A stretch of DNA of 64,000 nucleotides from an uncultured Bacteroidales bacterium (GTDB lineage: Bacteria > Bacteroidota > Bacteroidia > Bacteroidales > UBA7960). A model generated the notes under the pieces. The model searched no databases and had not been told where the DNA came from. It saw only the letters and a program-made list of their open reading frames with translations. Position numbers and translations under genes: made by a program. How positions within the stretch are numbered: position 1 is the first letter of the stretch; every line of letters starts with the position of its first letter. Shown piece after piece: positions 1 to 30,698 of this stretch. Where the stretch lies: the NCBI GenBank assembly GCA_964453995.1, contig CAYVQC010000009.1, positions 16,408-80,407 on the forward strand, written 5' to 3'.

Positions 1-1995
1 CAATCGCCGCCTTTCCATGAAATAAAGCATGAACATTATCTGCCGGCTTTCACGGAGGCCATTGATTGGGCCAAAAAGGAAATTGAGACCATTGCCAACC
101 AACCGGAAGAACCCACTTTTGAAAATACCATCGAAGCCCTCTCCTATGCAGGAGAGCGTCTGGATCGTATAAGTGGTATCTTTTTTAACCTCACCTACGC
201 CGAAACCGACGATCAGTTACAGCAGATCGCCCGTGAGGTTTCGCCAATGATTACGGATCATAGCAATGATATCCTTTTTAATGGTAAATTATTTGACCGT
301 ATAAAAAAGGTTTATGCCCAACGCGATCAACTGGATCTTACTCCAGAGCAACGTATGCTGCTGGAAAAGACCTATAAATCATTTTCGCGCAACGGCGCCA
401 ATCTTTCTGATGCTGATAAAGAGAAAATCCGTGCTATCAGCCGTGAGCTATCAGAATTGTCGCTTCGTTTCAATGATAACGTGCTGGCCGAAACCAACGG
501 ATGGTTCCTGCACATTACTGATGAAAAAGATCTCGCAGGATTGCCCCAAAGTTTTATTGAAACGGCCGAGCAAGCTGCAAAGGCTAAAGACCTGCAGGGA
601 TGGGTAGTTACCCTTCATGCTCCTGGTTACGTGCCTTTTATGAGGTATGCCGACAACCGCCAGCTGCGCGAAAAAGTGTATATGGCTTATGCTGTAAGAG
701 GATACCAGCAAAATGAGTATAACAATACAGAAATACTTACCCGTATTGCCAACCTAAGGCTCGAAAAAGCAAAATTACTGGGTTATCCTTCCCACGCCGA
801 CTTTGTCTTGGAAGAAACTATGGCCCGCAGTGCTGCCAGTGTAAATGCTTTCCTGGATCAACTCTCCGGTGCCGCTCTGCCCAAAGCAAAGATAGAGGTG
901 AAAGAAGTACAGGATTTTGCTGCAACATTAGGTTTCAACCAACCCCTGATGCCATGGGACTGGAGCTATTATGCCGAAAAACTGCGCAAGGAAAAGTATG
1001 ATTTTGATGAAGAATTGACCCGGCCTTATTTCCAGCTGGAGAAAGTTACCGAAGGCATATTCGGGCTTACCAGTAAATTATGGGGTTTAACCTATAAGCA
1101 GAATAATGAGATCCCGGTTTACCACAAGGATGTTACTGTATATGAAGTATACGATAAGGATGGCAAGTTCTTATCCCTTTTATACCTTGACTTCTTCCCT
1201 CGCGAAAGCAAAAGTGGTGGTGCCTGGATGACCAGTTTCCGCGAACAGTATCGTAAAAATGGAGAAGACGTAAGACCGCAGGTATCCCTGGTATGTAATT
1301 TTTCAAAGCCCACCGAAGCACGACCCTCATTGCTTACTTTCAACGAATTCAGCACCTTCTTGCATGAATTTGGCCATGCCTTGCACGGAATGCTTTCCAA
1401 TGTTACCTATTCCGATCTTTCAGGAACCAGCGTGTATCGCGATTTTGTTGAGCTCCCATCACAAATACTTGAAAATTGGGCCATTGAAAAAGATTTCCTG
1501 GATATGTTTGCAAGACATTATCAAACAGGCGAACCCATGCCCACCGAAATGATAGAAAAGATCATTGAGGTAAAGAACTTCCAGGCTGGTTACAGCACCG
1601 TTAGGCAATTGAGCTTTGGGCTCAATGATATGGCATGGCATAGCATTACAGAGCCTGTTACCACGGATGCAGAATCATTTGAGCGGAATGCCATGAAACC
1701 GGTAGCCCTCTTTGATTGGATCGATGGTACTATGATGAGCACAGCTTTTACCCACATCTTTTCCGGTGGCTATTCCGCAGGATACTATGGCTACAAATGG
1801 GCAGAGGTTCTTGATGCCGATGCCTACCAGGCTTTTCGTGAAAATGGAATTTTTGATGAAAAAACAGCTTTGTCATTCCGCGAAAATATTCTTGCCAAAG
1901 GTGGTAGCGAGCATCCCATGGATATCTATGTAAGATTCCGTGGCAAAGAACCTTCCATTGATGCTCTCCTGGAAAGAAGTGGCCTGAAAAACTGA
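1..1995 (+). CDS. dcp: M3-family peptidyl-dipeptidase (Dcp-like), 5' end truncated by the window edge
   Basis: Frame 1 is open from nt 1 with no stop before the tracked ATG at 247. It carries the HEFGH zinc motif (FLHEFGHALHG) and M3 oligopeptidase-like sequence throughout. A strong terminator follows. Confidence 0.85.
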   Translation, partial: QSPPFHEIKHEHYLPAFTEAIDWAKKEIETIANQPEEPTFENTIEALSYAGERLDRISGIFFNLTYAETDDQLQQIAREVSPMITDHSNDILFNGKLFDRIKKVYAQRDQLDLTPEQRMLLEKTYKSFSRNGANLSDADKEKIRAISRELSELSLRFNDNVLAETNGWFLHITDEKDLAGLPQSFIETAEQAAKAKDLQGWVVTLHAPGYVPFMRYADNRQLREKVYMAYAVRGYQQNEYNNTEILTRIANLRLEKAKLLGYPSHADFVLEETMARSAASVNAFLDQLSGAALPKAKIEVKEVQDFAATLGFNQPLMPWDWSYYAEKLRKEKYDFDEELTRPYFQLEKVTEGIFGLTSKLWGLTYKQNNEIPVYHKDVTVYEVYDKDGKFLSLLYLDFFPRESKSGGAWMTSFREQYRKNGEDVRPQVSLVCNFSKPTEARPSLLTFNEFSTFLHEFGHALHGMLSNVTYSDLSGTSVYRDFVELPSQILENWAIEKDFLDMFARHYQTGEPMPTEMIEKIIEVKNFQAGYSTVRQLSFGLNDMAWHSITEPVTTDAESFERNAMKPVALFDWIDGTMMSTAFTHIFSGGYSAGYYGYKWAEVLDADAYQAFRENGIFDEKTALSFRENILAKGGSEHPMDIYVRFRGKEPSIDALLERSGLKN

Positions 1996-2036
1996 TTTCT
2001 GACACAGAATAATTCTTCACAAAATACAAAATGAAA

Positions 2037-2062
2037 ACCGGGACTTGCTCCCGGTTTTTTTT
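2037..2062 (+). terminator. Rho-independent terminator after dcp
   Basis: Perfect 7-bp stem ACCGGGA/TCCCGGT with a 5-nt loop (cttgc), followed by a run of 8 T. Confidence 0.8.
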
Positions 2063-2112: not shown

Positions 2113-2120
2113 TAAATTTG
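2113..2120 (+). promoter_or_regulatory. Candidate Bacteroidota -7 box (TAAATTTG) upstream of the carboxylase/mevalonate cluster
   Basis: Matches TAnnTTTG and lies 105 nt upstream of the ATG at 2226. I found no clean TTTG -33 element at the expected spacing. Confidence 0.3.
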
Positions 2121-2225
2121 CAATACCTGCCCTCCCTCTTGTTTAAAAGATAATCCAAAGCATAAACAAAACTGTTTAGGTTCTGTTAAAACAACTAAAC
2201 ATATCAAAATTTTAACATTCTATTT

Positions 2226-3824
2226 ATGCCTGATACAACACAAGAGTCCTTTGAGCGGGAAAAAACCCAGGGGGATCAGTCGTTTGAGAAAATCCTTGCA
2301 GACTTTTACGACAAATACCGCAGGGTACTATCGGGAGGGTCAGAAAAGGCATTAGCCCTTCACCGTAGTCGGGGCAAACTCACTGCCCGCGAGAGAATTG
2401 AAACCCTTCTCGATCCGGATTCTCCGTTTCTTGAGCTATCTGCTCTTGCCGCCAATGGGCAATACGAGGACCAGTTTCCTGCTGCAGGCATTGTTACCGG
2501 TGTCGGCAAAGTTCACAACCAATTTGTGGTTGTTGTTGCCAATGATGCTACGGTAAAAGGCGGTACCTACATCAGGGAAACCATACGCAAACATATAAGG
2601 GCACAGGAGGTTTCCATCGACAACCATCTCCCTGCCATTTATCTGGTGGACAGTGGGGGGATTTTTCTTCCGGAGCAGGCAAATGTTTTTCCCGATAAAG
2701 AAGATTTTGGACGGATTTTCAGTAACCAGGCACGTATGTCGGCCATGGGTATACCCCAGGTAGCAGTGGTTATGGGTTCCTGTACTGCCGGCGGAGCTTA
2801 TATTCCAGCCATGTGCGATGAAAGTATCATTGTGAAAAACCAGGGTACCATCTTTATTGGTGGTCCCCCCCTGGTTAAAGCGGCTACCGGCGAGGAGGTT
2901 ACCGACGAAGAGCTGGGAGGAGGAAATGTTCATGCCAAAATATCAGGAGTAGTAGATCACCTGGCTGAAGATGATGTTCATGCCCTGACGATTTGCAGGA
3001 AAATTGTTTCGGGATTTCCATCACCCCAAAAACAAACGGTAAATCGTGTAACACCCCAGCAACCTCACCTCCCACAGGAGGGCCTGCGTAAACTCGCCCT
3101 TGCCGATTCTTCAAGGCATATTGATCACGCCAGGGTAATTGAACATATAGCAGATATGGGGGAATTCCAGCCTTTTAAGGCTGAGTATGCCAAAACGATC
3201 ATCACCGGCTTTGCCCGTATCAATGGTTACCAGGTGGGAATCCTCGCCAACAATGGCGTTGTTTTTGGCGAAACCGCCCGTAAGGCAGCTCATTTTGTGC
3301 AGATCTGCAATTTCAGAAAAATCCCCATGATTTTCCTGCAAAACATTACTGGCTTCATTGTGGGTAAAAAATATGAACATGATGGTATTGCCCGCGATGG
3401 TGCCAAATGGATACACGCCGTGGCCACCAGCACAGTTCCCATCATCAGCATTATTACCGGGGGGTCTTATGGGGCAGGAAATTACGCTATGGCAGGCAGG
3501 GCTTTTGATCCACGGTTTTTGTTCATGTGGCCCAATGCACGTATTGGGGTTATGGGCGGAGACCAGGCTGCCAGGGTACTTACCCAACTTAAAAAAGCGA
3601 AAGGGAAGAATGGCGCTGAGCTCCTGGCAAAGTCTGAAGAAGACCTTTTCAGAGAGATTAAAGCAAGGTACGATCATGAAAGTTCTGCTCTTTACTCCAC
3701 CAGCCGAATATGGGATGATGGCATTATCGATCCTGCCAATACCCGCAAAGTTATTTCTCTGGCACTGGAGATCACAGCCAACAGGCAATGGCCTGAGTTT
3801 AAACCCGGTATTTACCGGATGTAA
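2226..3824 (+). CDS. Acyl-CoA carboxylase carboxyltransferase (beta) subunit, methylcrotonyl-CoA carboxylase type
   Basis: 532 aa. The N-terminal region ALALHRSRGKLTARERI and the two crotonase-fold carboxyltransferase halves resemble MCCase/geranyl-CoA carboxylase beta subunits. It is adjacent to the matching alpha subunit, a hydratase and an ACAD. Confidence 0.8.
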   Translation: MPDTTQESFEREKTQGDQSFEKILADFYDKYRRVLSGGSEKALALHRSRGKLTARERIETLLDPDSPFLELSALAANGQYEDQFPAAGIVTGVGKVHNQFVVVVANDATVKGGTYIRETIRKHIRAQEVSIDNHLPAIYLVDSGGIFLPEQANVFPDKEDFGRIFSNQARMSAMGIPQVAVVMGSCTAGGAYIPAMCDESIIVKNQGTIFIGGPPLVKAATGEEVTDEELGGGNVHAKISGVVDHLAEDDVHALTICRKIVSGFPSPQKQTVNRVTPQQPHLPQEGLRKLALADSSRHIDHARVIEHIADMGEFQPFKAEYAKTIITGFARINGYQVGILANNGVVFGETARKAAHFVQICNFRKIPMIFLQNITGFIVGKKYEHDGIARDGAKWIHAVATSTVPIISIITGGSYGAGNYAMAGRAFDPRFLFMWPNARIGVMGGDQAARVLTQLKKAKGKNGAELLAKSEEDLFREIKARYDHESSALYSTSRIWDDGIIDPANTRKVISLALEITANRQWPEFKPGIYRM

Positions 3825-3870
3825 TGGAATGGTATGCTGCCTGGTTGCATAATTTAAAAAGCACAGTATT

Positions 3871-4653
3871 ATGAACCGATACAAAAACATACAGGTTGAG
3901 CTGGAAGAGAATGTTTTTACACTTACCCTCAACAGGCCCCAAAAGAGAAACGCAATCGATGAGGCCACCATGGACGAATTGCTGGATGCCCTGAAAGCAT
4001 TTGGCATCAGGAAGGATATATCGCTTGCTGTTCTCAGGGGGGCCGGCACCGATTTTTGTGCAGGAGCTGATCTGGATTGGATGCGGTCAACCCAGGGAAT
4101 GACTATAGAACAACTGGCCAGCCAGAATATGAAACTCCAGAAGGTATTTAACCTTTGGTTTGATTTGCCGGCCTTTACCATTGCTGTAATCCAGGGAAAT
4201 ATTGTGGGAGGAGGGCTTGGCCTGGTGGCCTCTTCCGATCTTGTTGTTGCTCAACCTGGTAGTATGTTCAGGTTCTCTGAAGTTACACTGGGCTTGATGC
4301 CGGCCACCATTGCCCCCTTTGTATTGCAAAGAACACAAAGCCGCTTCATTCGCAATGCCATGCTCACGGCACTTCCCTTCGCTGCCGATGAGGCCCTGCA
4401 ACATGGGCTTATTGATATTGTTGCCGACAAAACTCTTGAAAAGGATGTGCTGGAGCGATACACAAAAGCGCTGAACAAAACAGCCAGAGAGGCTGTTTCA
4501 AAAACCAAAAAACTTTCCAATGACCTGATTTTTAATCGGATCAAAGAACCAATGGATGAGTATACTGCAAATCTGCTGGCCGAGGTACGAAAATCGGAAG
4601 GGGCAGAAAAACGTATTGCAGCATTTTTTAAATCATTAGAAAAGAAAGCATGA
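3871..4653 (+). CDS. Enoyl-CoA hydratase/isomerase family protein (methylglutaconyl-CoA hydratase candidate)
   Basis: 260 aa crotonase fold (NRPQKRNAID, GAGTDFCAGADL). It lies between the carboxylase beta and alpha subunits, and its stop overlaps the next start (ATGA). Confidence 0.75.
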   Translation: MNRYKNIQVELEENVFTLTLNRPQKRNAIDEATMDELLDALKAFGIRKDISLAVLRGAGTDFCAGADLDWMRSTQGMTIEQLASQNMKLQKVFNLWFDLPAFTIAVIQGNIVGGGLGLVASSDLVVAQPGSMFRFSEVTLGLMPATIAPFVLQRTQSRFIRNAMLTALPFAADEALQHGLIDIVADKTLEKDVLERYTKALNKTAREAVSKTKKLSNDLIFNRIKEPMDEYTANLLAEVRKSEGAEKRIAAFFKSLEKKA

Positions 4654-6593
4654 GGATTAAAAAAGTACTTATAGCCAATCGGGGAGAAATAGCACTGAGA
4701 ATAATGCGCTCCCTGAAAAGGATGGAGATTCGGAGCATTGCCCTTTTTACTGATATTGAAAGGGACGATCTTCATGTAAAATCAGCAGATGAGTCTTGGT
4801 CATTGGGCAATGGCAACCTCACTGAAACCTGGTTGAATATCCCCCTCATTCTCAGTATTGCCAAAGAAAGCGGAGCAGATGCCATCCATCCGGGCTATGG
4901 GTTTCTGTCAGAAAATGCCGCTTTTGCCAGGGCATGTGAGCAAGAGGGAATCATCTTTATCGGACCACGCAGCGATGTAATAGAAAAGATGGGCAGTAAG
5001 ATTCTGTCTTCTGCCATCGCCAGGCAGGCCGGTATCCCTCTACTGCCACGTCTGGAAGGTGAGCCCGCTTTATTGATCGAAAAAGCGCATCAACTGGGAT
5101 TTCCTCTCCTGGTAAAAGCCGCTGCAGGTGGTGGTGGCAAAGGAATGGTGCGCATCGACAGCCAGGGGATGCTTGAGCAGGGCGTGTTTGCCGCTTCCGA
5201 ACAGGCACTGCGTTATTTTGCCAATGAAAAAGTCTACCTTGAAAAATACGTGCAACATCCCAGGCATATTGAAGTGCAGATCCTGGCCGACAATCATGGC
5301 AATGTGGTTCATCTGCTGGAAAGAGAATGTACCCTGCAAAGGAACCACCAGAAAGTGGTAGAAGAAGCTCCTTCTGTTTCGCTTAACCCCCAAAACCGGA
5401 CCGCTTTGCATGATGCCGCAGTTAAGCTTGCTAAAACTGTCGGGTATACCAATGCCGGTACAGTAGAGTTTATCCTTGATGAGGACGGCAAATTCTATTT
5501 TCTCGAAATGAACACCCGTATTCAGGTCGAGCACCCCGTTACCGAGGCCATTACCGGCGTTGATATTGTAGAAGAACAGCTACACATAGCCATGAATAAG
5601 AAACTGTCTGTAAGGCAGGAAGATGTGAAAGCCCATGGCCATGCCATTGAAGTGAGGCTGTATGCCGAAGACCCCCTTCACAATTTCAGGCCCTCAGCAG
5701 GTACTGTAAAGAAGTTTATATTACCGACCTCCAAAGACTTACGTGTTGACAGTTCTATTGCCTCATCGGGAAAAGTTAATTCAAACTTTGATGCCATGAT
5801 CGCCAAGATCGTTGTATCATCCACCTCCCGGGATGAAGCAATCATGTCGATGCAGAAAGTTCTCGATAATACCCTTGTGCATGGAATAAAAACCAACCTG
5901 GCACTTTTGGCAGGGATTGTAAAAGCAGAGATTTACAAAAACAATACAATCAGTACCCATAGTATAGCTGACAACCTTTCCCGTTGGGCTACCCCGGAAA
6001 GTACCTTCGAAGATATGATCCTGGCAGCAGGATTATTTCTGTGGCTGGAACGCTACAGTTCCGGCCAGGGCAACAATGCATGGCGTATGGCCAATATAGA
6101 AAAGTTGCTGGTAAATCAGAATGAAATATCTGTGTTTCATTTTCCCCTGGGAGATCATGGCGTGCATTTACGTAAAGGTGATCAATCGTGGGATTTTTCC
6201 AGGATATCTGTAGACGAACATAAAATATCGTTTCTTTGCAACAAAAAGGCTTTTTCTTTTGTTTTCAGTTATTCAGAACGAAATTCAATGTTTCTGGTCA
6301 ACGGAGTTCATTACCAGGTTGTACTTCCCCAAGCAGTGGTAACACGAAGGCTTTCCACCGGTACCAATGGCAACAAACTGCCCGATCTTAAAGCGACACT
6401 TTTTGGCAGGGTTTTACGCGTAAATGTTGCCGCAAAACAGAAGGTAAAATCCGGCGATCCTTTATTGGTTGTAGAATCCATGAAAATGGAAAATACTATC
6501 CTTGCCCCTGAAGATAATGTAGTTTCATCCATCAATGTAAAGGTTGGTGACCAGGTAAGCGATGGACAGGTATTGATAAGTTTTGAAGATTAA
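4650..6593 (+). CDS. Acyl-CoA carboxylase alpha subunit (biotin carboxylase fused to a C-terminal biotinyl domain)
   Basis: 647 aa. It has an ATP-grasp biotin carboxylase N-terminus (KVLIANRGEIALRI, GGGGKGM, EMNTRIQVEHPVTE) and a C-terminal biotin attachment motif VESMKMEN. Confidence 0.85.
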   Translation: MRIKKVLIANRGEIALRIMRSLKRMEIRSIALFTDIERDDLHVKSADESWSLGNGNLTETWLNIPLILSIAKESGADAIHPGYGFLSENAAFARACEQEGIIFIGPRSDVIEKMGSKILSSAIARQAGIPLLPRLEGEPALLIEKAHQLGFPLLVKAAAGGGGKGMVRIDSQGMLEQGVFAASEQALRYFANEKVYLEKYVQHPRHIEVQILADNHGNVVHLLERECTLQRNHQKVVEEAPSVSLNPQNRTALHDAAVKLAKTVGYTNAGTVEFILDEDGKFYFLEMNTRIQVEHPVTEAITGVDIVEEQLHIAMNKKLSVRQEDVKAHGHAIEVRLYAEDPLHNFRPSAGTVKKFILPTSKDLRVDSSIASSGKVNSNFDAMIAKIVVSSTSRDEAIMSMQKVLDNTLVHGIKTNLALLAGIVKAEIYKNNTISTHSIADNLSRWATPESTFEDMILAAGLFLWLERYSSGQGNNAWRMANIEKLLVNQNEISVFHFPLGDHGVHLRKGDQSWDFSRISVDEHKISFLCNKKAFSFVFSYSERNSMFLVNGVHYQVVLPQAVVTRRLSTGTNGNKLPDLKATLFGRVLRVNVAAKQKVKSGDPLLVVESMKMENTILAPEDNVVSSINVKVGDQVSDGQVLISFED

Positions 6594-6625
6594 GATATAA
6601 CAATAGTTTCAATTAAAAGCAAAGT

Positions 6626-7777
6626 ATGAATCAAAGTCCCTATTTCTCACAATTGCATGAGGAATTCCGTTTAAAAGTCAGGCACTTCGCAGAAGAACGT
6701 GTTCGTCCGGTAGCAGCAGAACTCGATCAAAAGGAAGAGTTTTCAGTGGAGCTAACCCAAGCTATGGGGCAACTTGGCCTTTTTGGGGTTAATGTTCCTG
6801 TAGAATATGGTGGTCATGGAAAAGATTACAGATCGCTGGTGCTTGCAGTGGAAGAGATTGCACGGGTAGATGGCAGCCAGGCTGCTACACTGGCAGCTCA
6901 TAATTCGCTCGGCATAGGGCCAATTTATATGTTTGGTACTGAGGAGCAGAAAAAAAGGCTAATCCCCCGACTCACTTCAGGCAAACATACCTGGGCATTT
7001 GCGCTTACAGAACCTAATGCGGGTAGCGATGCTATGGGTACCGAAACCCGTGCAAAGCAGGTTGACGGGCAGTGGGTAATCAACGGGCAGAAAATTTTTA
7101 TTTCCAATGCTGCATCACCTATGTCATTGGGGGCTACAATACAGGCCATTACAGGAGAAGAAGATGGTAAGAAAAAACTTTCCACCATACTGGTTGAAAG
7201 CAATACAGAGGGTTATCACCGCGAGCGCATCACCAATAAAATGATGTGGCGATCGGCTGATACAGGCAAACTCAGGTTCGACAATGTGCGTGTACCCGCC
7301 GATAATCTGCTTGGGGAATTGGGCAAAGGCGGAAGGCAAATGCTTGAAACGCTTGACAGCGGGCGGCTTACCATTGGGGCCATGGGATTGGGCCTTGCCC
7401 GTGGAGCTTTTGAGATGGCACAGAAATATGCCAATGAAAGAAAACAGTTTGGAAAACCCATTAAGCATTTTCAGGCTGTGGCCTTTAAACTTGCCGATAT
7501 GGCACTGAAAATAGAACTTGCCGCCAATACCTTGTACAATGCAGTTTGGCGCAAAGACAATGGATTGCCCTTTGGTAAAGAGGCTGCCATGGCGAAACTT
7601 TACACCTCTGAAATTGCCCGCGAGGTAGCTGATGAAGCCGTACAGATTCATGGCGCCTATGGCCTGGTAAGGGATTATGATATAGAAAGATTCTATCGCG
7701 ACCAACGTATCCTGCAAATAGGAGAAGGAACCAGCGAAATTTTAAGGCTCGTAATTTCAAGACACATCGATAGCTGA
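6626..7777 (+). CDS. Acyl-CoA dehydrogenase (short/branched-chain type; isovaleryl-CoA dehydrogenase candidate by context only)
   Basis: 383 aa ACAD family (TEPNAGSD, C-terminal IGEGTSEILRLVISR). The substrate is inferred from neighbouring genes. See the finding on its hybrid active-site motif. Confidence 0.8.
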   Translation: MNQSPYFSQLHEEFRLKVRHFAEERVRPVAAELDQKEEFSVELTQAMGQLGLFGVNVPVEYGGHGKDYRSLVLAVEEIARVDGSQAATLAAHNSLGIGPIYMFGTEEQKKRLIPRLTSGKHTWAFALTEPNAGSDAMGTETRAKQVDGQWVINGQKIFISNAASPMSLGATIQAITGEEDGKKKLSTILVESNTEGYHRERITNKMMWRSADTGKLRFDNVRVPADNLLGELGKGGRQMLETLDSGRLTIGAMGLGLARGAFEMAQKYANERKQFGKPIKHFQAVAFKLADMALKIELAANTLYNAVWRKDNGLPFGKEAAMAKLYTSEIAREVADEAVQIHGAYGLVRDYDIERFYRDQRILQIGEGTSEILRLVISRHIDS

Positions 7778-7790
7778 AACACTAACCATT

Positions 7791-8798
7791 ATGGAAGATC
7801 GCAAAAAAGACCACATCAATCTTGCGCTAACCAACCGTACAGGTACTGTTGAGAAGGATTACCGGTTTGTATATGAACCACTTCTTTCGGGTCATACCAC
7901 TCCTGAGATTTCCAGAGTAAAGCTGGCAAACAAATTTATGAAAGTTCCCATCTGGATTTCCAGTATGACCGGTGGGGCAGGAATAGCAAGGCATATCAAT
8001 ACCAACCTGGCCATGGCTGCCAATGAATTTGGCCTTGGCATGGGATTGGGCTCATGCCGTATATTGCTTGACTCGGAAAAACACCTGCCTGACTTCGACA
8101 TGCGTTCGGTTATTGGTGATGAGCAACCCTTTTGGGCCAACCTGGGGATTGCCCAACTGGAGCAAATGGTAGAAAAAGGAAACCTCAACGAGGTTACTGA
8201 TATGATCAATCTTTTACGTTGCGACGGTTTGATTATCCATGTAAATCCCCTCCAGGAATGGTTTCAACCCGAAGGCGACAGGCTCAGGCATCTTCCTCTT
8301 GAAATCATAAAGGAAGTAGTTAGCTTTCTTGATTTTCCTGTTATTGTCAAAGAAGTAGGGCAGGGCATGGGGCGTGAAAGCCTTAAAGCCATGATGGAGC
8401 TCCCCCTGGCAGCAATTGAATTCGCTGCTTTCGGGGGTACCAATTTTGCCAGGGTGGAAATGATGCGAAGACCCACAATAGAGCACGAGCTTTTCGAGCC
8501 TTTGGTATTTGTTGGGCAAACTGCAGAAGATATGCTCATAGATGTTAAGCAATTGCTCGCAGATGGAGTGAATAACCAGGCTCAACTGTTAATCATCAGT
8601 GGCGGTATAAGAAATTACCTCGATGGCTATTATTTTATCAAATCCAGCCCCTTGCCTGCTGTCTACGGTATGGCATCAGGCTTTTTAAAACATGCCAGGG
8701 ATGATTATTCATCGTTGAGAAGCTGGGCTAAATCGCACATTGACGGGTTGCTTATGGCACATGCTTTCCTGAGGCTCAACAACACAAATCAAGGCTGA
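7791..8798 (+). CDS. fni: Type 2 isopentenyl-diphosphate delta-isomerase (FMN-dependent IDI-2)
   Basis: 335 aa. It starts MEDRKKDHINL, and has the SSMTGG motif, a VKEVGQG TIM-barrel core and SGGIRN. It sits in a mevalonate pathway context. Confidence 0.8.
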   Translation: MEDRKKDHINLALTNRTGTVEKDYRFVYEPLLSGHTTPEISRVKLANKFMKVPIWISSMTGGAGIARHINTNLAMAANEFGLGMGLGSCRILLDSEKHLPDFDMRSVIGDEQPFWANLGIAQLEQMVEKGNLNEVTDMINLLRCDGLIIHVNPLQEWFQPEGDRLRHLPLEIIKEVVSFLDFPVIVKEVGQGMGRESLKAMMELPLAAIEFAAFGGTNFARVEMMRRPTIEHELFEPLVFVGQTAEDMLIDVKQLLADGVNNQAQLLIISGGIRNYLDGYYFIKSSPLPAVYGMASGFLKHARDDYSSLRSWAKSHIDGLLMAHAFLRLNNTNQG

Positions 8799-8884
8799 CC
8801 GTTCCAAGCCAACCGCGATATCACTTTTTGTGAATTGTATTCTTGAAAGACCAACCCGATCTTAACCCTCATTAGATTGTAACT

Positions 8885-10183
8885 ATGCAAAATCAACCAC
8901 CTGTAAAAGGATTCTCGAAACTAAGCCGTGATGAAAAAATCCATTGGCTCTCCGCAAGTTTGCAAGATGATCAGGTGGCTGTGTTTTTGCAACAATTCCG
9001 CCTTAAAGATGAAAATCTTCAGGGAAAATTCGAAAGCTTTTCTGAAAATACACTCACCAATTATCATCTTCCCTGGGGCATGGTTCCCAATGTAATGGTG
9101 GATGATGTTCTGTATCATGTTCCTGTAGTTATTGAAGAAAGTTCGGTGGTGGCCGCTGCATCTAAAGCTGCTTCCTTCTGGTCGAAGCTTGGTGGTTTCA
9201 AAACGGCTTTGGTGTCGGCCATAAAGAAGGGGCAGTTGCATTTTCTCTATCGGGGAAATGCCCAGAAACTATATGCCCGGTGGGATGATGTTTCGGCAGA
9301 CCTGAAGACTTCCGTAAACCACCTTACCCAAAATATGGAGGCGCGGGGTGGTGGTATCCTTTCCCTGAAACTTAAACAGGTAAGCGGATTGGCCGATTAT
9401 TATTTCCAGATAGATATGGAAGCTGATACCGGCGACAGTATGGGTGCCAATTTTATCAATTCTGTATTGGAGGAGATGGGGCGGGTTCTGCCTTCCTTGA
9501 TCACGAAGCATGTGGATGAGGGCGAAACAGATATTATTATGGCTATCCTGTCCAATCACACTCCGGGTAGCCTGGTACGAATTTCTGCACAGGCTGCTGT
9601 TGACCAGTTGAAATGGAGCAAAGAAATGCCCCCCGAAAAGTTTGCTTCGCGTATGCAATGGGCAGCCGATATTGCCTGGTTTGACCCATCAAGGGCAGTA
9701 ACCCATAACAAGGGAATCTACAATGGTGTGGATGCAGTAGTATTGGCAACCGGCAATGATTTTCGTGCTGTAGAAGCCGCAGGACATGCCCATGCAACCC
9801 GGGATGGGCAATACCGGTCGCTGAGCCGGATAACACTTAGCCAGAATGTATTTAATATTGAACTGGAAATACCACTCGCCCTGGGAACAGTTGGTGGGCT
9901 TACAAAGCTCCATCCGCTGGCGGCCAAAACTCTTGAGATACTTGGCAACCCTAATGCAAAAACACTTATGTCAATTGCTGCTGCTGTAGGACTGGCCAAT
10001 AATTTCGCAGCAATGGCCTCCCTGGTAACTACAGGAATTCAAAAAGGGCACATGAAGATGCATTTGCAGAACATATTACATTCACTTAATGTTGATCCCA
10101 GGCTGCATCAAAAGGCAGAACAGCACTTCCGGGATAAAACTGTGAGTGTAGCCGCAGTTAGAGAGTTTTTTAAGAAAACCTAA
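8885..10183 (+). CDS. mvaA: Hydroxymethylglutaryl-CoA reductase, class II
   Basis: 432 aa with the class II HMGR motifs EESSVVAAASK, DSMGANFIN, ALGTVGG and QKGHMKMH. Confidence 0.85.
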   Translation: MQNQPPVKGFSKLSRDEKIHWLSASLQDDQVAVFLQQFRLKDENLQGKFESFSENTLTNYHLPWGMVPNVMVDDVLYHVPVVIEESSVVAAASKAASFWSKLGGFKTALVSAIKKGQLHFLYRGNAQKLYARWDDVSADLKTSVNHLTQNMEARGGGILSLKLKQVSGLADYYFQIDMEADTGDSMGANFINSVLEEMGRVLPSLITKHVDEGETDIIMAILSNHTPGSLVRISAQAAVDQLKWSKEMPPEKFASRMQWAADIAWFDPSRAVTHNKGIYNGVDAVVLATGNDFRAVEAAGHAHATRDGQYRSLSRITLSQNVFNIELEIPLALGTVGGLTKLHPLAAKTLEILGNPNAKTLMSIAAAVGLANNFAAMASLVTTGIQKGHMKMHLQNILHSLNVDPRLHQKAEQHFRDKTVSVAAVREFFKKT

Positions 10184-10196
10184 TCAGCAAACCCCA

Positions 10197-11111
10197 ATGG
10201 ATCGTTTTTTTTCTTTTGCCAAGATACTTTTAATGGGTGAATATGCAGTATTGCACGGCGCTGATGCACTATGCCTGCCTTTGAAAACCGGGCAACAGCT
10301 ATTTGTTGAAAATGCAGATGACGGTGCAATACGGTGGGAATGGACTTACGGAAAAGAAAGTATTACATCTGTTGTGCTTGACAGGAAGTCTCTCGAGGTT
10401 CTTGATAGCACGCATGGCAGCGCAGACTGGCCCGTAGCACTGATCAAGCAGATCCGGCTTCAAAATCCTTCCTTTCTGAAAGATAAAGGCAGAAGCCTGC
10501 AGTTTGTGAATTATTTTCCCCCCAGCTGGGGTCTTGGAAGCAGTTCTGCCACAATCTCCTCATTGTGCAGAATGGCGGGAGTAAATCCATTTACTGTTAA
10601 TAAGGAGCTCACCGGTGGTTCCGGGGCCGATATTGCCTGCACTACGGCCAAAGACTGGTTTTTGTATCGCAATATTCTTCCACGGCCGGCTACCTGGCAG
10701 TTGCCCATGGGGTATACTTTCCCTGACCATACGTATTTTGTGTATTCAGGTAAAAAGCAACCCACCAGGGATCATCTGGAAACAATTGGTCAAAACCAGC
10801 CAAAGCACTATGTTTCCTGGATGGAAGCCAACAAATACGTTTATAAGTTTATTGCCTGCGACACCATTCCAGAGATGATGAAGGTAGTGCACGACCATGA
10901 ACTGCTCATCCAGGATGGAATTGGGGTCACGGCCATTGGTACGCAATTTCCTGATTTCCCCGGCAAGGTAAAATCGTTGGGTGCCTGGGGAGGAGACTTT
11001 TTTATGGCAATAACCCAGCAGAGCAAAGATTTTGTATTCGAATATTTCAACTCCAAGGGGTTTGCACAGGTTTTCCCGTGGGATCAGTTTGTTACATCAC
11101 CTTCGTTCTGA
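10197..11111 (+). CDS. Divergent GHMP-family kinase (phosphomevalonate kinase or mevalonate kinase candidate)
   Basis: 304 aa. It has GHMP motif I KILLMGEYAVLHG and motif II PPSWGLGSSSA, but a degenerate motif III (GAWGGDFF). It lies between HMGR and MVD. Confidence 0.6.
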   Translation: MDRFFSFAKILLMGEYAVLHGADALCLPLKTGQQLFVENADDGAIRWEWTYGKESITSVVLDRKSLEVLDSTHGSADWPVALIKQIRLQNPSFLKDKGRSLQFVNYFPPSWGLGSSSATISSLCRMAGVNPFTVNKELTGGSGADIACTTAKDWFLYRNILPRPATWQLPMGYTFPDHTYFVYSGKKQPTRDHLETIGQNQPKHYVSWMEANKYVYKFIACDTIPEMMKVVHDHELLIQDGIGVTAIGTQFPDFPGKVKSLGAWGGDFFMAITQQSKDFVFEYFNSKGFAQVFPWDQFVTSPSF

Positions 11112-11157
11112 GCAAAAAAAAATCATTATGGTAGCCCACTAAATAAAAATTATTTTA

Positions 11158-12201
11158 ATGAGTGCAAAAGGAAAGATCAGTTACAGCAGTCCTTCAAATA
11201 TTGCTATCATCAAATACTGGGGAAAGCAACCCGGGAATCAGATTCCGATGAATCCCTCTGTTAGCATGACTTTGGATAAATGCAGAAGTTTTACTACCAT
11301 TGAATATGAGGTAAAAGAATTGTGCGAGCCTTCGCTGGAAGTTTATTTCGCGGGAAGCAGGGCAACGGATATTGAAGCAAAATTGCAGAAATGGTTTGAC
11401 AAGATCGCCGGTATTTTTCCCTGGCTCTCTTGTGCAAGGTTGCGTATTGAAACCAGGAATAATTTTCCACACTCTGCCGGCATTGCCTCTTCTGCCAGCG
11501 GAATGAGTGCACTGGCCATGTGCCTGTCGGGGATAGATGAGCACATTGGGCATGAGGGAAAACATACCAAGGAATTTCACAGCAATATTGCAAGGCTGGG
11601 TTCGGGGAGTGCCTCCCGTTCTGTTACCGGGCCGTGGGTATTATGGGGAGAGTCAAAATTTTTTCCTGGTTCAGCCAATGATCATGTAATAAACATACCC
11701 GATATTCATGCCGACTTCGTATATTTGCATGATACTATTATTGTGGTAGATAAGCAACCCAAAAGCATCAGCAGCCGCCAGGGACATTCCCTTATGGATG
11801 CACATCCATACCGCAGCGGACGCATCAAACAGACAGAAGACAATCTTTCGCGGTTGACACAGGCATTAAAAACAGGAGACTGGAATACTTTTTCCCTGAT
11901 CACAGAAAATGAAGCTCTCAGCCTTCACGCACTAATGCTGGCTTCTGAAGGAGGTATGATGCTTTGGAGAGGTGATACCATTGAGTGGATGCATTTCCTG
12001 AGGCAGCAGAGGCAAAAGACGGGTATCCCGCTTACTTTTACCCTCGACGCCGGAGCCAATATCCACCTGCTGTATCCTCCCTGGGTTCACAAAGAAATAG
12101 TTCAAATTCTGGCAGCTGCACCCGTAGGATCCATTGAGTTTATTCATGATCATACCGGCACAGGTCCTGAAAAGTTGAATGATGATTATGAGCAAAATTG
12201 A
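11158..12201 (+). CDS. mvaD: Diphosphomevalonate decarboxylase
   Basis: 347 aa with the hallmarks SPSNIAIIKYWGK and SAGIASSASG, plus DAGANIHLL near the C-terminus. Confidence 0.85.
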   Translation: MSAKGKISYSSPSNIAIIKYWGKQPGNQIPMNPSVSMTLDKCRSFTTIEYEVKELCEPSLEVYFAGSRATDIEAKLQKWFDKIAGIFPWLSCARLRIETRNNFPHSAGIASSASGMSALAMCLSGIDEHIGHEGKHTKEFHSNIARLGSGSASRSVTGPWVLWGESKFFPGSANDHVINIPDIHADFVYLHDTIIVVDKQPKSISSRQGHSLMDAHPYRSGRIKQTEDNLSRLTQALKTGDWNTFSLITENEALSLHALMLASEGGMMLWRGDTIEWMHFLRQQRQKTGIPLTFTLDAGANIHLLYPPWVHKEIVQILAAAPVGSIEFIHDHTGTGPEKLNDDYEQN

Positions 12202-13135
12202 AAAAACACAGTTCCCGGCCAAAATACTTCTTTTCGGAGAATATGGGATCATTCTGGGTGGGTTGGCCCTTACCATTCCATTGAAAAAATTTTCGGGCCG
12301 ACTTCAGTTTCCTCCCAAGGGTAGTTCACTTCCCCCTTCTGCTGCAGAAAGCAACCAGGTGATGACCGATTACCTGGCATGGCTCTACAAACCAGAGATA
12401 AGAGATAGGCTTCGTATTCCTTTGGATATGTTACAAATGAGCAGAGACCTGGCAAAAGGGCTGTTTTTCAACAGCAATATTCCCCAGGGATATGGAGCCG
12501 GAAGCAGCGGTGCTTTAGTGGCAGCTTTGTTTATGAAGTATTCAGGATTATCCATCCGGCGTTCGTCAAAACCTGAACCCGCTTTTGTTGATACCCTCAT
12601 GAAGCAGTTCTCCCTGATGGAATCATGGTTTCATGGAAACTCATCCGGCCTGGATCCTCTGGGCAGCCTGTTGGCCAGGCCCCTGTTGTCTGATTCACAA
12701 AAGAATCTCTCTTTTCCCGATCATCCTGTTATTCATCCCTCTTTCGAGGTTACTTTTTTCATTGTGGATACAGGTATCAGGCGCAATACAAGGCCCCTGG
12801 TTGACTGGTTTGGCCAACAGGTAAAAGAAGGTAATCTTAACGCAGAACTTATGATGGCCCTGAGCAACCAGGTTGTTGAAGCTATCACCAACAGGAATCA
12901 TATGTTTTTTGACCATTTTCTGGCGCAGCTTTCCCTGTTTCAGCTTGAAAATATGAAACCCATGGTGCCTGACCCATTGAGGGATATCTGGATGAAAGGG
13001 GTCGAAACGGGCGAGTGGACCCTCAAGCTTTGCGGTGCCGGTGGTGGTGGCTATATGCTGGGTTTTACACGTAATTATACAGAAACAAAAATAGCCTTCC
13101 GAAAAGCAGGCTTTAAGACTTTCCTTCCATCATAA
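12179..13135 (+). CDS. GHMP-family kinase (mevalonate kinase candidate)
   Basis: 318 aa with KILLFGEYGIILG, PQGYGAGSSGALVAAL and LCGAGGGGYMLGF. The start is ambiguous (ATG at 12179, 12182 or 12188), and all options overlap the MVD stop. Confidence 0.7.
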   Translation: MMIMSKIEKTQFPAKILLFGEYGIILGGLALTIPLKKFSGRLQFPPKGSSLPPSAAESNQVMTDYLAWLYKPEIRDRLRIPLDMLQMSRDLAKGLFFNSNIPQGYGAGSSGALVAALFMKYSGLSIRRSSKPEPAFVDTLMKQFSLMESWFHGNSSGLDPLGSLLARPLLSDSQKNLSFPDHPVIHPSFEVTFFIVDTGIRRNTRPLVDWFGQQVKEGNLNAELMMALSNQVVEAITNRNHMFFDHFLAQLSLFQLENMKPMVPDPLRDIWMKGVETGEWTLKLCGAGGGGYMLGFTRNYTETKIAFRKAGFKTFLPS

Positions 13136-13391: not shown

Positions 13392-14630
13392 ATGAAAGAG
13401 TTCCTAGAAAATGATGAATTTCAGAAACTATTGCAAGCAGCAGATGCTATTGCCGCCAGTAAAAAAAAGTTTTCTGATATTGAAGATGCCAGGGGCAATC
13501 AATATGTAGACCTGGTACAGGAAGGGGGAGGAGTACTGGGTATCGCCCTTGTGGGTTACACCGCTATCCTGGAGCGTGCGGGAATAAGGTTTTTCAGTCT
13601 TGCCGGTACTTCGGCAGGAGCCATCAATACAATGATGATAGCCGCTCTGGGTCCCATAGAACAACCCAAATCAGAAAAGATTCTTGATATTCTTAGCAGA
13701 AAGAACCTCTTTGACCTTGTAGATGGCAATTATCCTGTGCGAAAATTAGTACGTAAAAGTATTAAGGAAGAGGGAGGAATTGGATGGCTCATTCTTCTCA
13801 ACATCAGAAGGCTATACCGCGCTCTCACCCAAAAACTGGGGCTGAATCCCGGAACCGATTTTGAAAAATGGATTACTTCAGAATTAAGGAAAGAGGGTAT
13901 CAAAACCATGCGTGATGTAAACAGCCTTCGGCAAAAGCTGCCAGAAGGGCTGAGACATACCGGGGGTGGGAGTGTAGATGACCTGAAGCCTCAGTTGGCT
14001 ATCATTGCTGCCGATATAACAACCCACAGTAAGATTGAGTTTCCCCGAATGTCTGAATTGTTTTATGCTGAGCCCGATTCTGTGCCCCCGGCCGCATTGG
14101 TAAGAACATCAATGTCTATCCCTGTCTTTTTCGAACCCGTTACCATAAATAATATTCCCAATGCCGGAGTTTCAAATGATAAGAAGTGGGAAGAACACTG
14201 TAAATACTATGGTCCGGTGCCACCCTCGGTAAGATTTGTTGATGGAGGATTATTGTCAAACTTTCCCATAAATGTATTTCACCGAAGGGATGGTGGCGTG
14301 CCCCGGAAGCCAACCTTTGGAGTGAGGCTTAGTACTTACCGCGAAACCTACTCCGATGTAAAAGGGCTGAAAGTGATGCTGGGAGCTATGATCAGTTCCA
14401 TGAGGCAGATTTACGATTATGATTTCCTGAAGAGGAATCCTGATTTTTCTCAACTCATCTGCCATGTAAATGCTGATAAGGATTTCAATTGGCTGGATTT
14501 TGAGATCGGTAAGGCGGAGCAGGTAAAAATGTTTGTGCATGGAGCCCGCGAAGCGGTAAAGTTCCTTGAAGCTTTCGATTGGGATAAATACAAAGAAACC
14601 CGCAAGTCACTGGCGGATGTAGTTAAATAA
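13392..14630 (+). CDS. Patatin-like phospholipase family protein
   Basis: 412 aa with an oxyanion GGGVLG, the nucleophile elbow GTSAG and the catalytic Asp motif VDGGLLSNFP. Confidence 0.8.
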   Translation: MKEFLENDEFQKLLQAADAIAASKKKFSDIEDARGNQYVDLVQEGGGVLGIALVGYTAILERAGIRFFSLAGTSAGAINTMMIAALGPIEQPKSEKILDILSRKNLFDLVDGNYPVRKLVRKSIKEEGGIGWLILLNIRRLYRALTQKLGLNPGTDFEKWITSELRKEGIKTMRDVNSLRQKLPEGLRHTGGGSVDDLKPQLAIIAADITTHSKIEFPRMSELFYAEPDSVPPAALVRTSMSIPVFFEPVTINNIPNAGVSNDKKWEEHCKYYGPVPPSVRFVDGGLLSNFPINVFHRRDGGVPRKPTFGVRLSTYRETYSDVKGLKVMLGAMISSMRQIYDYDFLKRNPDFSQLICHVNADKDFNWLDFEIGKAEQVKMFVHGAREAVKFLEAFDWDKYKETRKSLADVVK

Positions 14631-14673
14631 CTCCTGCTTTCCTGGCCCGGAAGTAGTTTCTGCCACAATCTGC

Positions 14674-15036
14674 TTATTGCTCTTCCTGGTATTGGATCAA
14701 AACATCCAGGCCAACATATTCGAGCGTTTTCTCATGAGTGGCTTCCAGCTTTAGCCTGGGGGCCACTCCTGCTTTCAGGGCTTCAACCCACCTGCTGGCA
14801 CACAGGCACCAATAGTCTCCCGGCTTGAGCCCGGGAAAGTTATAGGCCGGCATAGGAGTGATCAAATCGTTGCCCATAGCGCGGGAAAAATCAAGAAACT
14901 CTTTCGTTACCCTGGCACACACAGTATGCGTACCATGGTCTGAAGGACCTGTCTGACAATCGCCCTTGCGGTAATACCCTGTCAGCGGTTGAAGACTGCA
15001 GGTTTGCAAAGGGCCACCTAAAACATTTTTTGCCAT
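14674..15036 (-). CDS. DUF2237 family protein
   Basis: 120 aa. MAKNVLGGPLQTCS...GTHTVCARVT...PGDYWCLCASRW matches my recollection of the conserved DUF2237 pattern. Confidence 0.7.
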   Translation of the reverse strand: MAKNVLGGPLQTCSLQPLTGYYRKGDCQTGPSDHGTHTVCARVTKEFLDFSRAMGNDLITPMPAYNFPGLKPGDYWCLCASRWVEALKAGVAPRLKLEATHEKTLEYVGLDVLIQYQEEQ

Positions 15037-15116
15037 AACTTTGAATTTGTATTGAAGGGGTTTTAAACATGTAATTCTTTAATCGGAAGAGGCATTCCCG
15101 GCAACCTCAAAGCATG

Positions 15117-15485
15117 TCAGTTTTTACGAAAATACCATCCAAGCCATATCAGAAGAGGTTGCACCAAAACAAGCCTTACCCATCCTAAAACAGGTGAAAC
15201 ACATAAACTGTTTTCAATGCAGGAGCCCTGTGCAACAAAATATACATGTGCAGGAATAAAAAAGACCATTAACCCTGCAATACCAATACCGGCAAAAAAC
15301 CGGGTGGCCGGAATCAGCAATGCCACACCAAGAAGAATTTCAGCTGCCCCGGTAAGGAAGTTAACCAAACCAGGAAAAGGGATGTAATCGGGGATCAGGG
15401 GATAGTAAAAAGAGGGTGAAAGGAAATGATTGATCCCTGCGACAATGAAAAATAATGCAAATACAATACGGCAGGCTTTCTTCAT
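15117..15485 (-). CDS. Small DoxX-like integral membrane protein
   Basis: 122 aa with four predicted hydrophobic helices and a DoxX-like size and pattern. The family call is tentative. Confidence 0.5.
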   Translation of the reverse strand: MKKACRIVFALFFIVAGINHFLSPSFYYPLIPDYIPFPGLVNFLTGAAEILLGVALLIPATRFFAGIGIAGLMVFFIPAHVYFVAQGSCIENSLCVSPVLGWVRLVLVQPLLIWLGWYFRKN

Positions 15486-30021: not shown

Positions 30022-30176
30022 TTTTCAAGTTTTTACTCCGAAGACAAAGAGACGCAGTGTTTATTTAAAGTTACCCTGGTTTCCTGTCTTTGATTAAAAG
30101 TTGTTCACAAATCTTTTGAATCCATCTTTTAAAGTGGCGTATTGAGATAATCTGATTTCTCCCTCTCAGCGGTTAC

Positions 30177-30686
30177 CTACTCAATCACCACCATTACTTT
30201 TTTGGCTTCCACGGTATCGCCCTCTTTTACCCTGATGTCTTTCACCACGCCCTCTTTTTTAGCTTTAAATTCGCTTTCCATTTTCATGGCCGAAAAAATT
30301 ACCAGTGTTTGTCCGGCCTCGATAGTATCTCCTATGTTTACGGGGATCTTCACTACTTTGCCCGGGATGGGTGCCACAACAGTATTTTCTGCATCATCAT
30401 CACCGCCTTTCATTCGAGCGGCCTGGTATTTGGATTCAGCATCAATAATCTCAGCCTCATATGACTTGTTGTAGGTGTTGATGGTGTATTTCTTTACATT
30501 TTCACCGGGGATCAATTCGATGTTATAAGAATTATGATCGTGGATCATAGAAAAAATGCCTGGGTTTACTTTTTCAAAGTCAAGGTTGTATTCTTTTTCA
30601 TCTACCCTGATCCTTACATGCGAGCCATCCCACTGGAGCAATTGTACTTTTGCGGTTCGGCCATTTACTTTCACTTCGTACGACAT
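30177..30686 (-). CDS. Biotin carboxyl carrier (biotin/lipoyl attachment domain) protein
   Basis: 169 aa with a C-terminal biotinylation motif SAMKMESE. It lies between the carboxyltransferase and biotin carboxylase genes. Confidence 0.8.
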   Translation of the reverse strand: MSYEVKVNGRTAKVQLLQWDGSHVRIRVDEKEYNLDFEKVNPGIFSMIHDHNSYNIELIPGENVKKYTINTYNKSYEAEIIDAESKYQAARMKGGDDDAENTVVAPIPGKVVKIPVNIGDTIEAGQTLVIFSAMKMESEFKAKKEGVVKDIRVKEGDTVEAKKVMVVIE

Positions 30687-30698
30687 AGTTTTTTCCTT

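Follow-up and report, generated by a model that had tools for sequence, protein, structure and literature searches.

Can the carbon of leucine or isovalerate pass into isoprenoids through a single bacterial operon? The question is raised by a 64,000-nt stretch of DNA from an uncultured Bacteroidales bacterium (GenBank assembly GCA_964453995.1, contig CAYVQC010000009.1, positions 16,408 to 80,407; this whole stretch is called the window below). Nine intact genes on the same strand, at 2226-13135 of the window, join a leucine/isovalerate-type carboxylation module to the lower mevalonate (MVA) pathway. The four leading genes (MCCB, ECH, MCCA and ACAD) encode the beta subunit of a methylcrotonyl-CoA carboxylase (MCC), a crotonase, the MCC alpha subunit, and an acyl-CoA dehydrogenase (ACAD). 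They are followed by genes for type 2 isopentenyl diphosphate isomerase (IDI-2), class II HMG-CoA reductase (HMGR; HMG-CoA is 3-hydroxy-3-methylglutaryl-CoA), a GYDIA-family GHMP kinase, diphosphomevalonate decarboxylase (MVD), and a second GHMP kinase that resembles mevalonate kinase (MVK). The gaps of 46, -4, 32, 13, 86, 13, 46, and -23 nt are exactly those of the original prediction, which was made from the sequence and its open reading frames (ORFs), and its gene order and family list are matched by NCBIfam and Pfam. The crotonase stop and the MCCA start overlap by 4 nt.

The nine genes probably constitute one operon, which would lead from isovaleryl-CoA to isopentenyl diphosphate (IPP) and dimethylallyl diphosphate (DMAPP) via HMG-CoA. 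In the proposed route, a single regulated promoter 5' of MCCB would transcribe all nine genes. ACAD would convert isovaleryl-CoA, from leucine or external isovalerate, to 3-methylcrotonyl-CoA, and the two MCC subunits would use ATP and bicarbonate to form 3-methylglutaconyl-CoA. The LiuC-type crotonase would add water to give HMG-CoA, which HMGR would reduce to mevalonate in place of the lyase cleavage of the sister lineages described below. The two GHMP kinases and MVD would then form IPP, and IDI-2 would interconvert IPP and DMAPP. In textbook chemistry, the carboxyl group supplied by MCC ends up as C1 of mevalonate, and MVD removes it. All five isovaleryl-CoA carbons would then stay together as one intact isoprene unit, so that M+5 isoprene units are predicted from U-13C-leucine. 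Carbon that is burnt as fuel by relatives would, on this comparison, most likely be routed into isoprenoid precursors.

Conservation of the fused block and its leader

With HMGR as anchor, species-representative genomes gave 80 loci, nearly all labelled as Bacteroidota, with a few from Bacteriovoracaceae and one from Chlorobiota. Most have the order (IDI2)-HMGR-GYDIA-(MVD-MVK). In 5 of the 80, MCC and ACAD genes lie immediately 5', including the locus of the cultured Thermophagus xiamenensis DSM 19012. Three closer relatives of the window contain the identical nine genes on contigs of about 200-530 kb. All nine are also present in a complete 4.47-Mb genome (ERZ25039590 contig_31468), with a junction of 16 nt between ACAD and IDI2/HMGR. 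The complete genome of Salinivirga cyanobacteriivorans (L084, CP013118.1) has eight genes and no IDI2, and its ACAD-HMGR gap is also 16 nt. ORF coordinates of nine loci give ACAD-to-IDI2/HMGR gaps of 13, 23, 30, 18, 33, 41, 5, 6, and 23 nt, while the genomes have diverged to about 50% HMGR identity. The total number of fused loci is 31. Their flanking genes differ in every lineage, so the block alone is conserved. How widely the ACAD-IDI2/HMGR adjacency is kept had been left to a neighbourhood survey, and 31 fused loci with differing flanks place it far beyond chance. The HMGR of the window has its nearest relatives, at about 70% identity, in metagenome-assembled genomes (MAGs) of Bacteroidales.

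A metagenome scan anchored on ACAD gave 80 further loci. Together with three loci from an ACAD homology search, 64 could be judged downstream of ACAD: 23 run into IDI2/HMGR, and 41 do not. The unfused MCCB-ECH-MCCA-ACAD loci have an HMGL-like HMG-CoA lyase, CoA-transferase A/B, and an acetoacetyl-CoA-synthetase-like ligase as recurrent neighbours. This is a catabolic ending, which identifies HMG-CoA as the product of the module and fixes its direction. The lyase occurs in none of the 31 fused loci and in 19 of the 41 unfused ones (Fisher p = 4e-6, all loci examined), or in 14 of the 41 when only lyases inside or abutting the module are counted (p = 1.5e-4); the locus counts are not phylogenetically independent, and both p-values overstate the significance. 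The pattern of lyase and fusion is qualitatively clear despite this kinship. All fused loci form one clade in a neighbour-joining tree of ACAD, for which one state change is enough, and the fusion thus arose once and was then retained. Its persistence through deep divergence, with junctions of at most 41 nt in the measured loci, implies selection for co-expression.

The leader of the block contains a Bacteroidetes-type -7 promoter box (Table 1). It is the sole plus-strand intergenic match to TAnnTTTG between 1996 and 13391 and does not vary among four related upstream regions when these are aligned. Across the window the motif shows no enrichment, and the support for the box is its conservation and position. 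The inverted repeat TTGTTTA-N17-TAAACAA lies between this box and MCCB, followed by a second, degenerate copy at 2172-2202. It has a single match in the 64 kb, compared with 0.02 expected; the 2.49 Mb of related loci contain it in exact form 11 times, compared with 0.9 expected. Seven of these copies are 5' of MCCB in fused loci and one is 5' of an unfused ECH-MCCA-ACAD module. The other three precede HMGR in MVA operons that stand alone, in one case at a distance of about 600 nt. When up to one mismatch per arm is allowed, 20 of 144 target operon heads have the repeat, compared with 9 of 637 operon-first genes used as controls from the same loci (p = 1e-9); for the exact repeat the counts are 10/144 and 0/637. 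The head of the fused operon and the heads of MVA-only operons share this repeat, which fits one regulated transcription unit. The repeat is a candidate operator for a putative regulator. An RNA hairpin was judged less likely than a DNA operator because the mismatches in relaxed copies are non-compensatory and the arms are A/U-rich. A conserved internal promoter in the IDI2-HMGR spacer, the largest internal gap, was also rejected, as this spacer has 45% column identity in close relatives and no shared motif.

The 5' boundary of the nine-gene unit is marked by a hairpin that terminates the upstream M3 peptidase gene (ends 1995). A terminator had been placed at 2037-2062; the hairpin with its plus-strand T-run was found, and its coordinates are those of Table 1. 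The 256-nt gap 3' of the ninth gene is present as claimed, with no convincing terminator in it (fold z-score 0.14). A sigma-70 promoter and terminator scan of the window gave sites no more numerous than in shuffled sequence and was used solely for the 5' hairpin. The Rfam scan of the window detected three tRNAs only, with no riboswitch or leader. GC content is even across the block and its surroundings. The idea of a single unit that channels leucine or isovalerate carbon to isoprenoids is thus supported by junctions of 5-41 nt, by monophyly, by a lyase in the sisters only, by one conserved leader, and by the lack of a conserved element between IDI2 and HMGR.

Table 1. Positions of the nine genes, the leader elements, and copies of the inverted repeat in other loci (window coordinates unless a locus is named)
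Feature	Position	Strand	Description
Bidirectional hairpin terminator	2034-2058		10-bp stem, 5 GC pairs, flanking A/T runs
Bacteroidetes-type -7 promoter box TAAATTTG	2113-2120	+	105 nt 5' of the MCCB start codon
Inverted repeat TTGTTTA-N17-TAAACAA, candidate operator	2139-2169		neither arm varies among the four related upstream regions aligned
MCC beta	2226-3824	+	carboxyltransferase, PF01039
Crotonase	3871-4653	+	PF00378; LiuC/AtuE (alkyl)glutaconyl-CoA hydratase subfamily
MCC alpha	4650-6593	+	Biotin_carb_N, CPSase_L_D2, Biotin_carb_C, and Biotin_lipoyl domains
ACAD	6626-7777	+	all four ACAD Pfam domains
IDI-2	7791-8798	+	TIGR02151; start 13 nt past the ACAD stop
Class II HMGR	8885-10183	+	PF00368, TIGR00532
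GYDIA-family GHMP kinase	10197-11111	+	NF040656
Diphosphomevalonate decarboxylase (MVD)	11158-12201	+	MVD-like_N (PF22700), MDD_C (PF18376), TIGR01240
Mevalonate kinase-like GHMP kinase (gene 9)	12179-13135	+	TIGR00549; 23-nt overlap with MVD
Repeat with N17-19 spacer in other loci	L081 3033-3064, L082 3211-3242, L083 2779-2810, L084 5580-5611, L034 9854-9886, L068 6558-6590		

Several observations concern the surroundings of these loci. In the window, the operon has no neighbouring regulator gene of the LiuR or LiuQ type. In some proteobacteria, liu genes are under LiuQ regulators of the TetR type. The T. xiamenensis locus (L023) has a TetR-family regulator gene at 915-1547 (minus strand), about 1.5 kb 5' of the fused operon and opposite to it; an amidase gene separates the two, and this locus lacks the exact inverted repeat. 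A lipoyl synthase gene (LIAS_N and Radical_SAM domains) is located just 3' of the fused operon in two lineages (L028 14410-15270, L039 8980-9834). Lipoate is a cofactor of branched-chain keto-acid dehydrogenase, the source of isovaleryl-CoA from leucine, and the adjacency may be a coincidence. Two further matches near HMGR were dismissed as incidental: an HtrA protease lies between the MCCB-like match and HMGR in L071, and the ACAD-like match in L061 sits with Paa genes.

Enzymes of the carboxylation module and the lower mevalonate pathway

The carboxyltransferase can be classed as MCC-type by its scores and residues. It has 600 bits against MCC beta of P. aeruginosa (3u9r) and 591 against human MCC beta, compared with 411 against the beta subunit of geranyl-CoA carboxylase (GCC; 5ikl) and at most 271 against propionyl-CoA carboxylase (PCC)/12S. 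The alignment to MCC structures starts at query residues 21-33, and the N-terminal helix region, which is absent from PCC beta, is thus present. MCC is described as having an active-site Phe after a 3-residue insertion, with Gly in GCC (PMC4673880). The window protein reads 'EDFGRIF' where MCC structures read 'HFGR(I/T)F', with no gap relative to them; the published numbering cannot be mapped unambiguously to the PDB chain, so the decisive Phe is one of two conserved candidates, both of which are kept. The MCC alpha subunit comprises an ATP-grasp domain and a biotinylation site with the motif VESMKMEN (MKM), which fits the carboxylating direction. A divergent beta-carbonic anhydrase gene lies beside an unfused ECH-MCCA-ACAD module (L086 5773-6585) and fits bicarbonate supply for the carboxylase.

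A profile of 10 crotonase orthologues gives 269 bits with 3i47, 265 with 4kpk, 194 with AtuE (4zu2), and 192 with 4k3w; the other crotonases listed have 170 or less. By these scores the crotonase belongs to the LiuC/AtuE-type subfamily, and its function would be that of a 3-methylglutaconyl-CoA hydratase. The AtuE score, and 139 bits with the NCBIfam model of gamma-carboxygeranoyl-CoA hydratase (well under its cutoff), speak for an Atu-type GCC system that would break down acyclic terpenes and stand beside isoprenoid genes for recycling. The original prediction had named GCC as the competing identity of the carboxylase. With the higher MCC scores, the retained Phe residues, and sister-clade modules that end in HMG-CoA lyase, an enzyme of the leucine pathway, this explanation is largely refuted and extremely improbable.

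No other protein of the block is as well conserved as ACAD. Its best PDB matches are similar to short-chain acyl-CoA dehydrogenase (SCAD) and Bcd, at 347 bits, while structures of isovaleryl-CoA dehydrogenase (IVD) have 223-237 bits. Canonical IVD (human IVD/LiuA) has its catalytic base at E254, and Gly-Ala replaces Tyr-Glu at 374-375. The protein was aligned to residues 204-394 of human IVD, a fragment identical to 1IVH. In this alignment E254 corresponds to G246, G374 to G366, and A375 to E367, and all three residues are invariant in 92 orthologues. The catalytic Glu of ACAD is therefore at the position used by medium-chain acyl-CoA dehydrogenase (MCAD) and SCAD, and the E254-type arrangement of canonical IVD is lacking. 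The Gly of IVD at position 374 is kept (G366). In the work of Tiffany et al. of 1997, this position is reportedly Tyr in other ACADs, and the Gly of IVD is said to give space for the C3 branch.

MCC genes are upstream of ACAD in 44 of the 52 loci with enough upstream sequence, which makes this ACAD family a dedicated MCC partner. Gene context, with MCC genes 5' and HMG-CoA lyase 3' in the sister clade, suggests that ACAD is a non-canonical IVD. The role first given to it, conversion of isovaleryl-CoA to 3-methylcrotonyl-CoA, fits the MCC neighbours; a canonical IVD does not fit the Glu at the MCAD/SCAD position.

The resemblance of ACAD to Bcd-type enzymes, which are enoyl-CoA reductases in anaerobes, also bears on the idea that the module runs in reverse. 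HMG-CoA would then be dehydrated, decarboxylated, and reduced to isovaleryl-CoA as a primer of iso-branched fatty acids, and the two halves would be co-located since both branches use HMG-CoA. Reactions of biotin carboxylases are reversible in vitro. The related Carboxylicivirga (Marinilabiliales) has iso-C15:0 as a major fatty acid (PMC12325347). The orthologous module of the sister clade, with its HMG-CoA lyase and acetoacetate-activating genes, fixes the direction towards HMG-CoA; MCC is ATP-dependent, and the beta-carbonic anhydrase of L086 fits bicarbonate use. The reverse route also needs an HMG-CoA synthase (HMGS), and none was found in the window or the fused loci. The myxobacterial route uses AibA/B and AibC in place of MCC and an ACAD; both the window and the fused loci are without a CoA-transferase-type gene. 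The isovaleryl-CoA-forming reading, which had been put forward as a second option, is thus disfavoured and very unlikely.

In the alternative isovaleryl-CoA pathway of Myxococcus xanthus, the aib operon acts with LiuC and MvaS. The fused block is similar in that the chemistry of HMG-CoA, 3-methylglutaconyl-CoA, and isovaleryl-CoA is tied to isoprenoid precursors and involves a crotonase-type hydratase/dehydratase. In contrast, the myxobacterial pathway has the opposite direction and uses the AibA/B decarboxylase, the AibC reductase, and MvaS, and no gene for any of these turned up here.

In the lower mevalonate pathway, HMGR has 263 bits with PF00368 and 244 bits with TIGR00532 (cutoff 260). 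The motifs EESSVVAAA, NKG, ND, and GH are invariant in the HMGR alignment, and we take them to hold the catalytic Glu, Lys, Asp, and His of class II. IDI-2 matches TIGR02151 over nearly its full length (E 2.4e-60), with 204 bits compared with a curated cutoff of 281. MVD has 167.6 bits with TIGR01240 (cutoff 171.35) compared with 90 bits for phosphomevalonate decarboxylase, and by these scores it is a classical diphosphomevalonate decarboxylase, not one for phosphomevalonate. Both IDI-2 and MVD are assigned at the family level, as both scores are under the equivalog cutoffs. The IDI-2 gene is absent at this position in some fused loci, such as L028, L039, and L084. The product of the ninth gene has 66.6 bits with TIGR00549, below the cutoff, and weak PDB matches to the mevalonate kinases 2x7i and 2oi2.

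The GYDIA kinase (NF040656, 210 bits) follows HMGR in most of the Bacteroidota loci surveyed. A single-sequence search gave no PDB relative. The family profile is nearest to the mevalonate kinases 1kkh/1vis (E 6e-12), and the match to classical phosphomevalonate kinase (PMK) is not significant (E 0.3). By elimination, the GYDIA kinase would be the PMK of the pathway. An AlphaFold model from the single sequence was dropped (pLDDT 35). In an MVA operon of Sphingobacteriaceae (L061), a UbiA-family prenyltransferase gene is located directly 3' of MVK on the same strand (14281-15174).

The source of HMG-CoA

HMGS, thiolase, and HMG-CoA lyase had been described as absent from the cluster and from the window. 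Pfam scans covered the main ORFs of the window of at least 150 aa, and three tblastn baits were used: an S. aureus MvaS (validated with 870 bits against 1xpk), an unvalidated E. coli AtoB, and a Bacteroidota HMG-CoA lyase from a related locus. Neither the scans nor the baits detected any of the three enzymes in the 64-kb window. The 31 fused loci likewise have no HMGS, no CoA-transferase match, and no lyase. The unvalidated AtoB bait detected no thiolase in the window or the fused loci. A search of a plasmid collection with the MvaS bait gave no Bacteroidota HMGS. A thiolase gene (L029 13658-14824, minus strand; L038 5-739) lies some 7-9 kb away from IDI2-HMGR in each of two Saprospiraceae loci without the MCC module; with the same unvalidated bait, these two are the only upper-pathway-type genes near any MVA operon examined.

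The missing HMGS stands as an observation on cluster and window, but carries little weight as a pointer. None of the 80 loci anchored on HMGR has HMGS within 10 kb of that gene, and the same holds for the other loci examined, MVA-only lineages included. Those lineages presumably need another source of HMG-CoA, so its absence from an operon is uninformative about the genome. The same finding is in line with a view in which an HMGS elsewhere supplies most HMG-CoA, and the MCC/ACAD genes are a leucine-catabolic or salvage unit that shares the MVA promoter and makes a minor carbon input. The MVA gene order of the fused clade is also that of other Bacteroidota MVA operons, which are presumably fed by HMGS. 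In contrast, the module stands without a lyase or ketone-body gene in all 31 fused loci, while such genes are common neighbours in the sister clade. With the lyase missing, the module product has no evident fate other than HMGR. The selection for co-expression implied by the short, long-retained junctions also argues against a minor input, and this view is considered unlikely.

Isoprenoid precursors may have a second source in some of these organisms. The unvalidated E. coli baits Dxr, IspF, IspG, and IspH gave no match of the methylerythritol phosphate (MEP) pathway in 1.5 Mb of loci. Flavobacterium psychrophilum is presumably MVA-only. It has no IspG entry in the genome set of PMC8896826, and Chitinophaga caeni has one; MAGs labelled Chitinophaga carry MVA operons (L042, L057). 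For the Salinivirga assembly with the fused operon, the same source lists an IspG orthologue, ALO15331.1 (PMC8896826, Table 2 and supplements). The 133-residue N-terminus of this protein is 37% identical to E. coli IspG, and PF04551 is found in its relatives in the database. A homology search with the fragment gave short fragments only, with no linkage to fused-operon contigs. The MEP and MVA enzymes may coexist in Salinivirga. At least one fused-operon genome thus keeps a MEP enzyme, and the operon may be auxiliary or a salvage route rather than the sole source of isoprenoids. An auxiliary role would make the absence of HMGS more plausible and proves nothing.

A bolder extension is that the fused-operon bacteria lack HMGS altogether and that their MVA pathway is fed only from isovaleryl-CoA. 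In some members it would stand beside the MEP pathway, as a dedicated conversion of an abundant fermentation product or amino-acid skeleton to intact C5 units. The unit would perhaps be under a regulator that binds the TTGTTTA-N17-18-TAAACAA operator common to other Bacteroidota MVA operons. This is put forward tentatively, as a possibility somewhat on the doubtful side.

Apart from the kinship of the counted loci, several points weigh against one operon for the whole route. The support for operon and route is wholly comparative. ACAD is without the IVD-type catalytic arrangement and is nearest to SCAD/Bcd enzymes, some of which are reductive in anaerobes. Pfam scans detected no gene for an electron transfer flavoprotein, branched-chain keto-acid dehydrogenase, or isovalerate activation in the operon. 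The fused-operon genomes may still make most of their HMG-CoA from acetyl-CoA. Salinivirga encodes IspG, so the route from leucine to isoprenoids may be minor or conditional there.

Relation to known systems

Catabolic clusters for leucine and isovalerate include liuRABCDE of Pseudomonas and yngJIHGFE of Bacillus subtilis. The fused operon shares their set for conversion of isovaleryl-CoA to HMG-CoA (ACAD, MCC alpha and beta, and a LiuC-type hydratase), and the unfused sister loci, which carry a CoA-transferase and an HMGL-like lyase, are ordinary clusters of this type. In contrast, the fused operon has no HMG-CoA lyase, contains HMGR and the lower MVA pathway instead, and has an ACAD with Glu at the MCAD/SCAD position.

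Bacterial MVA operons include mvaK1-mvaD-mvaK2 with mvaS/mvaA in Gram-positive cocci and the MVA clusters of Streptomyces. The fused operon resembles these in its class II HMGR, MVD, IDI-2, and pair of GHMP kinases, all with the same orientation. The order HMGR-GYDIA-MVD-MVK is found in many Bacteroidota MVA operons, some of which are headed by the same inverted repeat. The Gram-positive and Streptomyces clusters differ in their entry by HMGS, which is a four-gene route from isovaleryl-CoA to HMG-CoA in the fused operon. Its putative PMK is also unusual in being GYDIA-family and MVK-like, not a classical PMK.

Routing of leucine to mevalonate is also known or proposed in halophilic archaea and myxobacteria. 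One study reports that leucine feeds only sterols in T. brucei (PMC5993337). A leucine-to-mevalonate route was proposed for Calditenuis archaea by metabolic reconstruction and metaproteomics (PMC12979851). All of these organisms, with the trypanosomatids and Calditenuis among them, are similar to the present case in that leucine-derived HMG-CoA enters the mevalonate pathway uncleaved. They differ in that their genes are dispersed and the route comes from labelling or reconstruction, whereas here both halves are in one bacterial operon and the lyase-coupled sister state is a natural control.

The entry of leucine-derived HMG-CoA into the mevalonate pathway, Liu-type clusters, and bacterial MVA operons are known already. 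What appears new is the joining of the catabolic and MVA halves in one conserved bacterial operon, alternating with a lyase-coupled sister state. The original prediction knew of no such architecture, and no description of it was found in the open-access literature.

HMG-CoA is a fork between catabolism through the lyase and isoprenoid synthesis through the reductase. Here the fork would be decided by operon architecture: the same four-gene module is set on a lyase in one lineage and on the reductase and MVA pathway in its sister, a rewiring by module swap. Some sediment and hot-spring Bacteroidales are predicted to build menaquinone and undecaprenol from leucine or isovalerate carbon, which would affect how isotope labelling and lipid biomarkers are read. 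If HMGS is truly absent, genome-based calls of an incomplete mevalonate pathway in these organisms would be wrong. The operon would also be a compact, ready design for isoprenoid precursors from branched-chain feedstocks. The two cultured carriers, T. xiamenensis DSM 19012 and S. cyanobacteriivorans, make these predictions directly testable. The biochemistry is familiar; the architecture, module swap, non-canonical ACAD, shared candidate operator, and cultured hosts make a well-defined system.

Elsewhere, the window contains a second biotin-dependent carboxylase at 28492-32342 (minus strand), encoded by three genes for a carboxyltransferase of 509 aa, a biotin carboxyl carrier protein of 169 aa, and a biotin carboxylase of 547 aa. 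It is presumably a housekeeping acetyl- or propionyl-CoA carboxylase. One ORF at 32521-33798 comprises an N-terminal thioredoxin domain fused to a thioredoxin-reductase-like pyridine nucleotide-disulphide oxidoreductase.

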